64,000 nucleotides of DNA, from NCBI RefSeq assembly GCF_057098645.1, contig NZ_CM169472.1; one strand, 5' to 3'. Shown in pieces: positions 28,401 through 31,400 of the stretch. Each line of letters begins with the position of its first letter. Position 1 is the first letter of the stretch. A program made the position numbers.

Positions 28401-31400
28401 AATCCCATTCATCAGGGTCTTTATCGCCGCCATAATCAAACAACAGATTAGTCACCATTGTGGTAACGCATTCCAGCAACACAACCTCATTCGGGTTAAT
28501 GTCTGCATGAATTAATTCATCAAGATGTTGCCAGCGCTCCACTGTGCGCCAGTGCTCCGGGCGGCCTTGCCGATGATGTTCTATCCGTGCAGCCATCTCA
28601 TCATCAAGGATTTGCGAGGTAGCGATATACAGAACCTGTGAAGAGTCCCCAATAAGCGCCTCTGCGTGGCGACTCTTCCCGCTCCGTGCGCCCCCCGTCA
28701 CCAAAATCATCATACCGACTCCTGATTCAAATGTATGATGGTATTCATTGAACAGAACAATGGATCCCCCACCGTTGCTGACCGCAAAACATTTACGCGA
28801 TTAATACTGCGCGTAATATAATTAAAAATCCAGCATTCTCAATCCATTACGAAATAAGATGGCATTACGGAATAGCCAGACTTTCTCGTGTTAACGTCCG
28901 ACAAAATGTGTCATTGACAGCGGTTTCTGTGGATTGACACATTTCATTCAGATAATGAATTAATGCTACTGCCGGACCAACCAGCAAACGGGCATTGTGT
29001 TCTGAAATCCAGGCTATTGATTCAACGTCAGCGACAGATCTGCGCTGTAAAAGAACTTGTAAAACAACGCAATAGAATTATCCGGAATGGTGGCGACTAT
29101 GCACTAGAACACCACAATTTCGCTCTCTCGGTAAGGCACTGTCACAGCATTCAACAGAATGTGACTTGCCAGATTTATTAGCGCCACCAGATGTTTAACC
29201 GGGTAACCACGACCCAGTCGGGGATATATTCCATCTTCTCGCTGACATCATCAAGAATAAAAAGGTTTATCACACTCAGAGCAACGTTCTTCAGCAGGCG
29301 GGATAATTCTTCAACATTTAAAAGATGTGTTATTAAAGGCATACAAACTGGACGTATTGTATTTTCTTTTGGTGGTTGACCTAAGGTAGCAGTTTATCCT
29401 GATGCGCTGAGATTTCTGTAATATCTACGTCAACATTCTCCTCGAATAGAAAATGCAGCCCCGGCAAGTGATTCACATTTTTTAACAAAACGTTGTTAGC
29501 GTGCCATTTTCAGAAGCTCTCCAAGAAAGCGAATTCTTTTCTCAAATTCTGCATTCTCAGACACAGCTTTCTACTCCATGGCAATGGCCCAAATACGAAG
29601 TTGCTCAGGATCATTAGTGGTGCTGAGAAGTTAAATAACCATGCGGAGTACCACTCGTCATCACGTATTTATATATCATGAAGCTATTGTTGTGTTTTGT
29701 ACATCAGTAGATGTATTCTGATATACTCCTTTTGCTAGACATAACCTTTCACCTGCTTGCAAAGCTTCTGTGTTCTGACATTGCCAAATTGTTGCAATTC
29801 TGTATCCAGCCTTCTTTCAGTCATAGCTTCGGGCCGCGATAAGACTCACTGATCTGACCCTGATTCCTCTTGCAGACTTTATAGACCAATTAAAATGCAG
29901 TTTCTGCAGGTCAACGTCTGACCATCATTGTCATCACTCTGGCCATTAGAGTAACCTTCTGCATTCATCCTTTTGTAAAAAGTTTATAGACTGGCCCCCT
30001 GAATCTCCAGACAACCAATATCACTTAAATAAGTGATAGTCCTGATACAAGTTTTTAGAGTAGTCATTAGTGAACAGATAATTGTTAACTTAGAACCAGT
30101 AAAATGCAAACGACGCACCACGCTGGGAAAATCGCTGCTATTCAGCAGAGTTTTGTACCGAGAATTGTGGCCAGCCACTTATTGCTCTCGCGTAAGCAGG
30201 TATCCCCATCGTTTACCAGTCCAGCACATCTTGTGGTCAGGCAGAAGAAGAGCAAACTGTTACTGGACTCACTGCATGCATGGTGGAGAAAAATGCCACG
30301 CTATCCAAAAATCCAGACTGGGAGAATGGTTCAGCTGTGTACTGAATCAGTGGGGCGCACTCTGTTATTACAGTGTTGACGGTCAGGCGGAGGCAGACAT
30401 AATGCCGCGGAAAAAGCCCTTTGTGCCATCTGTCTCGGAAATAAAAACTTTATGTTCTTCGGCGGCGAGCGCAGTGCACTGTTGTATGGGCTTATCGGCA
30501 CTTGCCTTCTGAACGACATTGATCCGGAAGCGTATCTGCGCCATATTCTGAGCGTACTGCCGGAATAACCTTCCAACCGTATTGATGAACTCCTGCCATG
30601 GAACGTAGTTCTCACCAATAAATAAGCATCAATATGATTCTCCATTAACGCTTACCTTTTCTCAGGCTATTTTTGCTTTTTTTTGCTTTTCCCCGCCACT
30701 TTATGGTGATTATCACATCAATATACATCGATAGATATTAACGTAACTGCAGTGAGGTGAAGCATGAAATTTGAACGCCATCATGAAATATTGAAACGAC
30801 TCAGTAAATTCGGTTCTGTAAAAGTATCCGATCTGTCCAATAGCCTCAATGTAACGAAAGAAACTATTCGTTCAGATCTTAATGAACTTGCCAGGCTTGG
30901 CTATCTGACTCGATGTCATGGCGGTGCTTTTATCGTCCTAGACTCGCTTGATACTATTGCGAAAAATGAAATCGCTTATGCGCTTGAAAATTATGATACA
31001 GCCCAGGGAATAAAAAAAGGCCACTCAACTATGAAAAGTCAAGTATGCGTTATTGGTTCGTTTAATGTTGATATCATCAGTTATTTGCCGAGGCTTCCCA
31101 CTATCGGAGAATCGCTTCTGGCAAGTAATTTTATATTTTCACCGGGGGGAAAAGGCTGTAACCAGGCGCTGGCAGCAAGCTTTGCCGATACTGATGTTTA
31201 TTTCATAACAAAAGTAGGTACAGATCACTTTAGTGATTATGCGATCAACTTTATGAATTCGTCTAAGATTTATAAAAGTATAATTTATCAAACGAAAGAA
31301 ACGCAAACCGAAACTGCCACGATCCTTGTTAATGAAGGTACTGGCGATAATGTTATTGCGATCTATCCCGGTGCCAACATGACAATGTCGTCCGATGAAA

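Follow-up and report, generated by a model that had tools for sequence, protein, structure and literature searches.

A probable stack of deletion and insertion scars upstream of cobU in an Escherichia coli chromosome

The loss of the cbi and pdu genes from Escherichia coli is textbook knowledge, and the cob operon (cbiA-P, cobUST) and its loss in this species have reportedly been treated by Lawrence and Roth (1995/1996). The cob operon of Salmonella, Klebsiella and Citrobacter shares cobUST with E. coli, and we have analysed what is left of the genes once upstream of cobU in a stretch of 64,000 nucleotides of one E. coli chromosome (RefSeq assembly GCF_057098645.1, contig NZ_CM169472.1), hereafter the window. 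In this window cobU is a minus-strand gene at 28168-28713, and the region under study, 28714-29986, adjoins its start codon; given the orientation of the gene, the region is therefore 5' of it (upstream), and not downstream as a first-pass annotation made from the sequence had stated. Compared with the operon of the three other genera, the window retains no more of cbiG than about 22 codons, and of cbiP a degenerate tail, relics of the two genes that once stood before cobU, and beyond these lie fragments of insertion sequences (IS) of the IS4, IS66 and IS110 families, up to a diverged IS2-like left inverted repeat which sets the right limit of the region from 29986. We consider it very probable (roughly 0.88) that deletion and insertion scars without function are stacked here, forming neither a gene nor a system, with the history proposed below. 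A working protein from any of the fragments is impossible.

Indeed, minus-strand translation yields protein-like segments in shifting frames interrupted by stops, as had first been noticed, and these extend over 28865-29642, where the transposase gene tnpC alone accounts for four stops and four frameshifts. The supposition that they are pseudogene remnants is supported by translated searches, which gave significant matches for TnpC (E 3e-22), for an IS4-family transposase (E 3e-20) and for a cbiG'-derived open reading frame (ORF; E 2e-23). Hits of tblastn elsewhere in the window are fragments only, so that the absence of an intact counterpart holds within the window, but the cbi relic does have longer ORFs, of 145 and 111 amino acids (aa), in other E. 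coli. The longest ORF in the region has 72 codons, and no Pfam domain was found in its six frames or in the frame-corrected fragments, these being too short or too decayed.

The relic of cbiG (cobalt-precorrin 5A hydrolase) is a fragment of the N-terminal domain, 'ISEHNARLLVGPAVALIHYLNE', which corresponds to about aa 88-112 (about 22 codons) and was placed at 28943-29008 on the minus strand by alignment to longer Escherichia ORFs. In another strain, whose sequence is identical here, the Prokaryotic Genome Annotation Pipeline (PGAP) labels 28865-29008 as a pseudogene, truncated, of a 'cobalamin biosynthesis protein'. The window fragment corresponds to the 3'-terminal 47 codons of the cbiG'-derived ORF: the stretch 29008-28850 (minus strand) gave the tblastn match with the 111-aa form cited above, and matched the 144-aa Escherichia ORF with an E-value of 2e-13. 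The window copy is without its N-terminus, has a 9-bp deletion and ends at a premature stop (28865). The 111-aa and 144-aa ORFs match the NCBIfam model of CbiG, NF004463, over profile positions 1-126 of 351 (E 7e-23), and they align with aa 1-112 of annotated Salmonella and Klebsiella cbiG at 44% identity (E 2e-18); even the longest Escherichia form scores 81 bits against a cutoff of 546, and hence is no full-length CbiG. Since the longer Escherichia ORF corresponds to the N-terminal part of CbiG, the PGAP fragment derives from cbiG and not from cbiP. Its assignment to the cbiP C-terminus was considered and rejected, as tblastn with CbiP of Citrobacter, Salmonella and Klebsiella gave no match. 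Only about 22 of the 47 retained codons (29008-28943) are cbiG-derived, and the 144/145-codon ORF is most simply regarded as a cbiG'-cbiP' deletion product. When the 57-aa fragment was used to look for homologs, short E. coli self-matches were all that was obtained, and the 145-aa ORF gave Escherichia and Shigella proteins only, as the word index of the search did not extend to full-length CbiG. ORFs of the 145-aa type occur in E. coli, E. albertii, E. marmotae and E. whittamii, and also in Shigella.

The remaining sequence next to cobU, 28714-28942 on the minus strand, would be the decayed 3' end of cbiP together with the cobU 5' leader, as suggested by weak but collinear profile matches; it includes the tail and the stop (28865) of the cbiG'-derived ORF. 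A scan with CobU, taking one genome per species, gave 80 loci. Elsewhere in the enterobacteria 64 loci, among them those of Citrobacter, Salmonella and Klebsiella, have an intact cbiP of about 506 aa that ends at, or overlaps, the cobU start; such an ORF is absent before cobU in the window, where a weak collinear trace is all that is found. This trace is seen with a nucleotide profile of 62 enterobacterial cbiP 3' ends, which matches 28851-28796 with an E-value of 0.004 in the window and of 1.7e-5 in the pdu-positive Escherichia locus L007, and the offset of the match to the cobU ATG is collinear within about 5 nt. In agreement, the CbiP protein profile 'NgLrqrkGLaaLDetldYAQYK' aligns with 'NAILFRNGLRMLDF*LYYAQY*' in the window, around the motif YAQYK, and blastn to Citrobacter extends from cobU to 28744, with a further collinear 57-bp match at 28853-28797. 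The cbiP trace is weak but consistent in five Escherichia alleles, and its border with the cbiG piece, near 28942, is approximate.

The cbiG-derived sequence is adjoined by an internal piece of an IS4-family transposase gene at 29017-29205 (minus strand), which covers aa 166-229 of 446, contains one in-frame stop and is also called as a pseudogene by PGAP. Its closest described relative is WP_001130323.1, an intact IS4-family transposase from plasmid pTB182A-4 of E. coli O55:H7, with which tblastn aligns aa 166-229 on 29205-29017 at 70% aa identity, this being the match of E 3e-20. Compared with that protein the window has 64 of the 446 codons, the one stop, and no element ends. Plasmid-borne IS4-family genes match with E-values down to about 1e-16, and the NCBIfam IS4 model NF033592 is matched over profile positions 132-197 of 332 only, weakly (E 5e-4; 19.3 bits against a cutoff of 115). 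The borders of this piece are abrupt, with unrelated sequence within a few bases on either side: aa 151 of TnpC ends at 29199 and aa 166 of the IS4 protein starts at 29205, while its aa 229 ends at 29017 and cbiG' follows from 29008. Far from the region under study, at 5061-5165 on the minus strand, there is another piece of a transposase of this type, which covers aa 408-442 of 446 and contains a stop (E 4e-5).

The largest piece derives from an IS66-family element. Such elements comprise tnpA, tnpB and tnpC, the last encoding a DDE transposase of about 510 aa; the relic in the window is without tnpA and without a complete tnpB, and its tnpC is without the catalytic two-thirds. The first 151 codons of tnpC lie at 29199-29642 (minus strand), in the K-12 pseudogene yoeG, and are followed at 29643-29757 by the tnpB-tnpC spacer and the last 25 or so codons of tnpB, these being recognised by a match to plasmid IS66 DNA and by frameshift-aware alignment. 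A plasmid IS66-family TnpC gives, with aa 1-151 on 29642-29199, the tblastn match of E 3e-22, and frameshift-aware alignment counts 92 identities in 151 positions, with frameshifts at about 29459, 29361, 29308 and 29262. At the DNA level, a distant blastn against a plasmid collection finds 29200-29760 about 71% identical to IS66-family elements across the tnpB end, the spacer and the tnpC start, for instance over 560 bp in plasmid pESBL3171-IncF, and the frame-corrected translation matches the PHROGs transposase family phrog_688 (E 2e-9). The plasmid match begins at 29757-29760, inside tnpB, of which aa 100-124 are placed at 29758-29685 with a score of 46 against a maximum of 39 among shuffles. 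The terminal inverted repeats of IS66 (GTAAGCG...) and an 8-bp target duplication are absent, as the homology stops inside genes (29199 and 29757), and tblastn of TnpA against the window gave no match. The piece is thus a relic and not a member element. The stretch 29760-29986 was considered as the upstream part of the same tnpB and rejected, since the frameshift-aware alignment matches aa 100-124 only. An IS66 right end (..CGCTTAC) is found elsewhere, at about 30655 and on the other strand.

A distinct case is the last piece, 29757-29986 (minus strand), which is a non-coding right end of an IS110-family element, detected by blastn and cut on its right by the IS2-like end. Coding remnants had been supposed over the whole of 28714-29986, and this stands for most pieces but not for these 230 bp. 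Searched in translation, this segment matched plasmids of Pantoea, Shigella and E. coli, and blastn identity is 73-74% over about 220 bp (Pantoea, E 9e-35; E. coli plasmid, E 9e-29). In the two plasmids examined the matching stretch starts about 30 bp past the stop codon of an IS110-family transposase, inside the element, and the K-12 chromosome continues from the same sequence into the C-terminus of such a transposase, yoeH (54 codons, aa 284-337 of 339, E 2.7e-8). No tblastn match to an IS110-family DEDD transposase gene was obtained in the window. The segment was never coding. Its right-end homology ends at 29757 and the tnpB homology starts at 29758, and the element appears to have entered the tnpB of the IS66 element. 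Its layout, in which the left end is short and the right one long, and the many Shigella plasmid matches suggest an element of the IS1111 group, probably ISEc11-like. In this group the right end holds the gene of the bridge/seek RNA (PMC12288879); no Rfam family matched the window piece, and compared with these elements the window is without the transposase gene.

We have compared the locus across 5426 complete E. coli genomes. Some match to the region is present in 5403 of them, in some 4000 the best match reaches 99% identity or more, and 2857 carry at least 80% of the region in one place; these figures fit the view that the region arose once, long ago, and has been inherited passively since. 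A different arrangement, in which pduCBA, pduF, pocR, a riboswitch and the 145-aa ORF precede cobU, is found in 642 genomes, e.g. NRG 857C and NC101, and similarly E. whittamii and the divergent 'E. coli E69' have pduA, pduF, pocR, a cobalamin riboswitch and the 144-aa ORF upstream of cobU. In E. whittamii, E69 and NRG 857C the riboswitch before the 144/145-aa ORF is a full RF00174 match (109-111 bits); in the window no Rfam family was found in 28100-30700 at E≤1, which indicates that this strain has no riboswitch. A third, 'clean scar' allele occurs in roughly a hundred-odd genomes, in which the 111-aa ORF directly abuts a C-terminal fragment of pduV, followed by tmaR and yeeA; in YSP8-1, for example, the pduV fragment abuts the cbiG' ORF. 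With the YSP8-1 fragment as query, tblastn finds the same C-terminal part of pduV in the window at 33926-34105 on the plus strand (93% identity, E 2e-34), just before tmaR. This far edge of the cbi-pdu deletion scar and the cbiG/cbiP relic at 28714-29008 bracket 29009-33925, which contains IS fragments, one kinase gene with helix-turn-helix (HTH) and PfkB domains and an intact IS2. The window pduV fragment and the clean-scar allele taken together indicate that all of 29009-33925 is inserted DNA inside the deletion scar.

Where the riboswitch is present, the cbiG' ORF, with about the first 112 codons of cbiG, follows it by about 220 nt (L091, i.e. NRG 857C, 4507-5337; L007, 3050-3877; L009, 3039-3866). 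The pdu-positive loci also have the small RNA STnc230 of Rfam between pduF and pocR (L009, 1889-1972; L007, 1903-1986, minus strand).

From the fragment identities, the abutting junctions and the alternative alleles observed here we infer the following order of events. By comparison, the Escherichia ancestor would have had pdu, pduF, pocR, the cobalamin riboswitch, cbiA...cbiP and cobUST in succession. The cbi genes would then have been deleted, leaving before cobU the riboswitch, the 144/145-codon ORF with the first 112 or so cbiG codons, and the decayed cbiP 3' end. In part of E. coli a second deletion, with one end within the cbiG' ORF and the other in pduV, would have removed pocR, pduF and most of pdu, and in the lineage of the window, K-12, O157 and most A/B1/E-type strains, IS-rich foreign DNA would have come to occupy the scar. 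Nested IS insertions and IS-associated deletions may have reduced its left edge to the three abutting fragments of IS4, IS66 and IS110: the IS110-type element, now only a right end, would have entered the IS66 tnpB, of the IS66 element there remain the end of tnpB and the initial third of tnpC, and deletions would account for internal fragments such as aa 166-229 of the IS4 transposase. An IS2-like element would then have truncated the IS110 element in this strain, while K-12 would instead have gained an IS5 at a CTAG site.

Some points weigh against this account. The order of events is drawn from present-day alleles and not from a phylogeny, and recombination could have carried alleles from one E. 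coli lineage to another. The putative assignment of 28714-28942 to cbiP relies on weak scores, of 5-13 bits. Also, the cbiG' ORF (144/145 codons) is open in several Escherichia species, with a ratio of nonsynonymous to synonymous substitution rates (dN/dS) of 0.4-0.6 against 0.13-0.20 for cobU, so that the longer form may not be entirely neutral.

Among the other explanations, the one that survives best is that the region is maintained as regulatory DNA of cobUST, with one or more promoters and possibly cobinamide-responsive control replacing the lost transcription driven by pocR and the riboswitch, which we regard as possible, if rather unlikely, from sequence features of the following kind. 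A consensus scan finds a sigma-70-like promoter candidate, TTGAGA-16 nt-TATATT (10/12), at 28842-28815 on the minus strand, inside the cbiP relic; it is correctly oriented, precedes the cobU ATG by about 95 nt and has a sequence conserved throughout the aligned Escherichia alleles, and cobUST does need a promoter in a strain that has no riboswitch left. However, such a role could concern the first 150-300 bp or so only and not the IS fragments, promoter-like sites in the region are not above shuffles in number, and the same sequence is also present in strains that still have the riboswitch. What seems plausible is more limited, namely that the cbiP-derived 150 bp or so next to cobU may provide a putative promoter and ribosome-binding site now serving cobUST, this being the sole plausible residual role. 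A more elaborate variant appears less likely again: the cbiG' ORF behind the riboswitch would be kept as a leader ORF coupling riboswitch control to cobUST, and strains that lost the riboswitch would have recruited a constitutive cobUST promoter from the AT-enriched 150 bp of cbiP origin.

We have also considered whether the scars might instead be the eroded left end of the prophage or integrative island CP4-44, the remnants being decayed phage or cargo genes. Apart from an IS5H, K-12 is collinear with the window over the whole region at 99.6-99.7% identity, up to about 29987 where the two diverge. The first-pass annotation had placed the remnants where K-12 carries CP4-44, and had suggested comparison with other strains; the locus is indeed the same, but K-12 contains this very sequence, which is also widespread in the species as described above. 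The K-12 IS5H occupies a CTAG that is empty in the window (29104-29107), as derived from the alignment of the two sequences, blastn break points and the K-12 annotation; accordingly, yeeH (b4639) corresponds to window 29017-29103 and yoeG (b4640) to 29110-29642, the IS4 fragment at 29017-29205 being represented by yeeH and the 3' part of yoeG. Further rightward K-12 has yoeH (b4641, the IS110-family transposase C-terminus) and yoeA, both of which are missing from the window, cut at 29986. The annotated K-12 feature does take in this sequence, being drawn from position 2066020 of NC_000913.3, and foreign DNA does begin here, at 29009-29017, where the G+C content drops from about 0.50 to about 0.41. 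However, position 2066020 equals window 28969, so that the annotated left boundary falls within the chromosomal cbiG relic, and all the pieces that could be identified come from IS transposase genes, from IS ends or from the cbi genes. A PHROGs scan of the region finds a transposase family on the IS66 fragment only, further hits being absent in all frames, and 28714-29986 yielded neither an integrase nor an attachment site nor any phage gene. The remnants are not those of island cargo or phage genes; the pieces are IS4, IS66 and IS110 fragments plus a chromosomal cbiG/cbiP relic. For these coordinates the CP4-44 explanation is largely refuted and we hold it to be very improbable. Finally, the protein-like segments might have been stretches of AT-rich intergenic DNA that are open by chance, as the six-frame Pfam result and a longest ORF of 72 codons might suggest; this can be dismissed, being excluded by the three tblastn E-values given at the outset, obtained against unrelated intact genes, and opposed by the 71-74% DNA identity to intact IS elements over 220-560 bp.

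The interpretation as a stack of scars has little weight for biology at large. It offers a worked example of how a chromosomal deletion scar, here from the loss of B12-synthesis and propanediol genes in Escherichia, may become a landing site for mobile DNA which then erodes. The region is already known in kind, as its pseudogenes are annotated in K-12 and by PGAP, and it is widespread and ordinary; no description of these fragments was found in the literature searched, the papers of Lawrence and Roth being outside its reach. The family assignments made here are small refinements of annotation: the left boundary of K-12 'CP4-44' sits in chromosomal cbiG-derived sequence, the PGAP 'cobalamin biosynthesis protein' fragment comes from cbiG rather than cbiP, and yoeG is a fragment of an IS66-family transposase, yeeH of an IS4-family one and yoeH of an IS110-family one.

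As to the surroundings, the E. coli chromosome in the window has cbl, nac, a tRNA-Asn gene, ldtA and cobT/S/U, the latter on the minus strand; yeeA, sbmC, dacD and sbcB lie farther to the right. The diverged IS2-like left end at the divergence point from K-12 extends over 29986-30198 on the plus strand and is 83-90% identical to the left end (33367-33121) of the intact IS2. To the right of it, an ORF of 404 aa (30764-31978, plus strand), which combines an HTH at its N-terminus with a PfkB kinase domain, is the only intact non-IS gene of the insert; in strain 720632 it is followed by four more genes, for an amidotransferase, a DMT transporter, a phosphotriesterase-related protein and a ggt fragment. 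The intact IS2, at about 32036-33367 on the minus strand, has its left inverted repeat twice in tandem at 33343-33392 (TCTGGAGATTCAGGGGGCCAGTCTA, two copies). An inverted mirror surrounds the PfkB gene, in which 29986-30198 (IS2-like) and 30497-30658 (IS66 right end) on the plus strand correspond, at 83-90% identity, to 33367-33121 and 33857-33696 on the minus strand.

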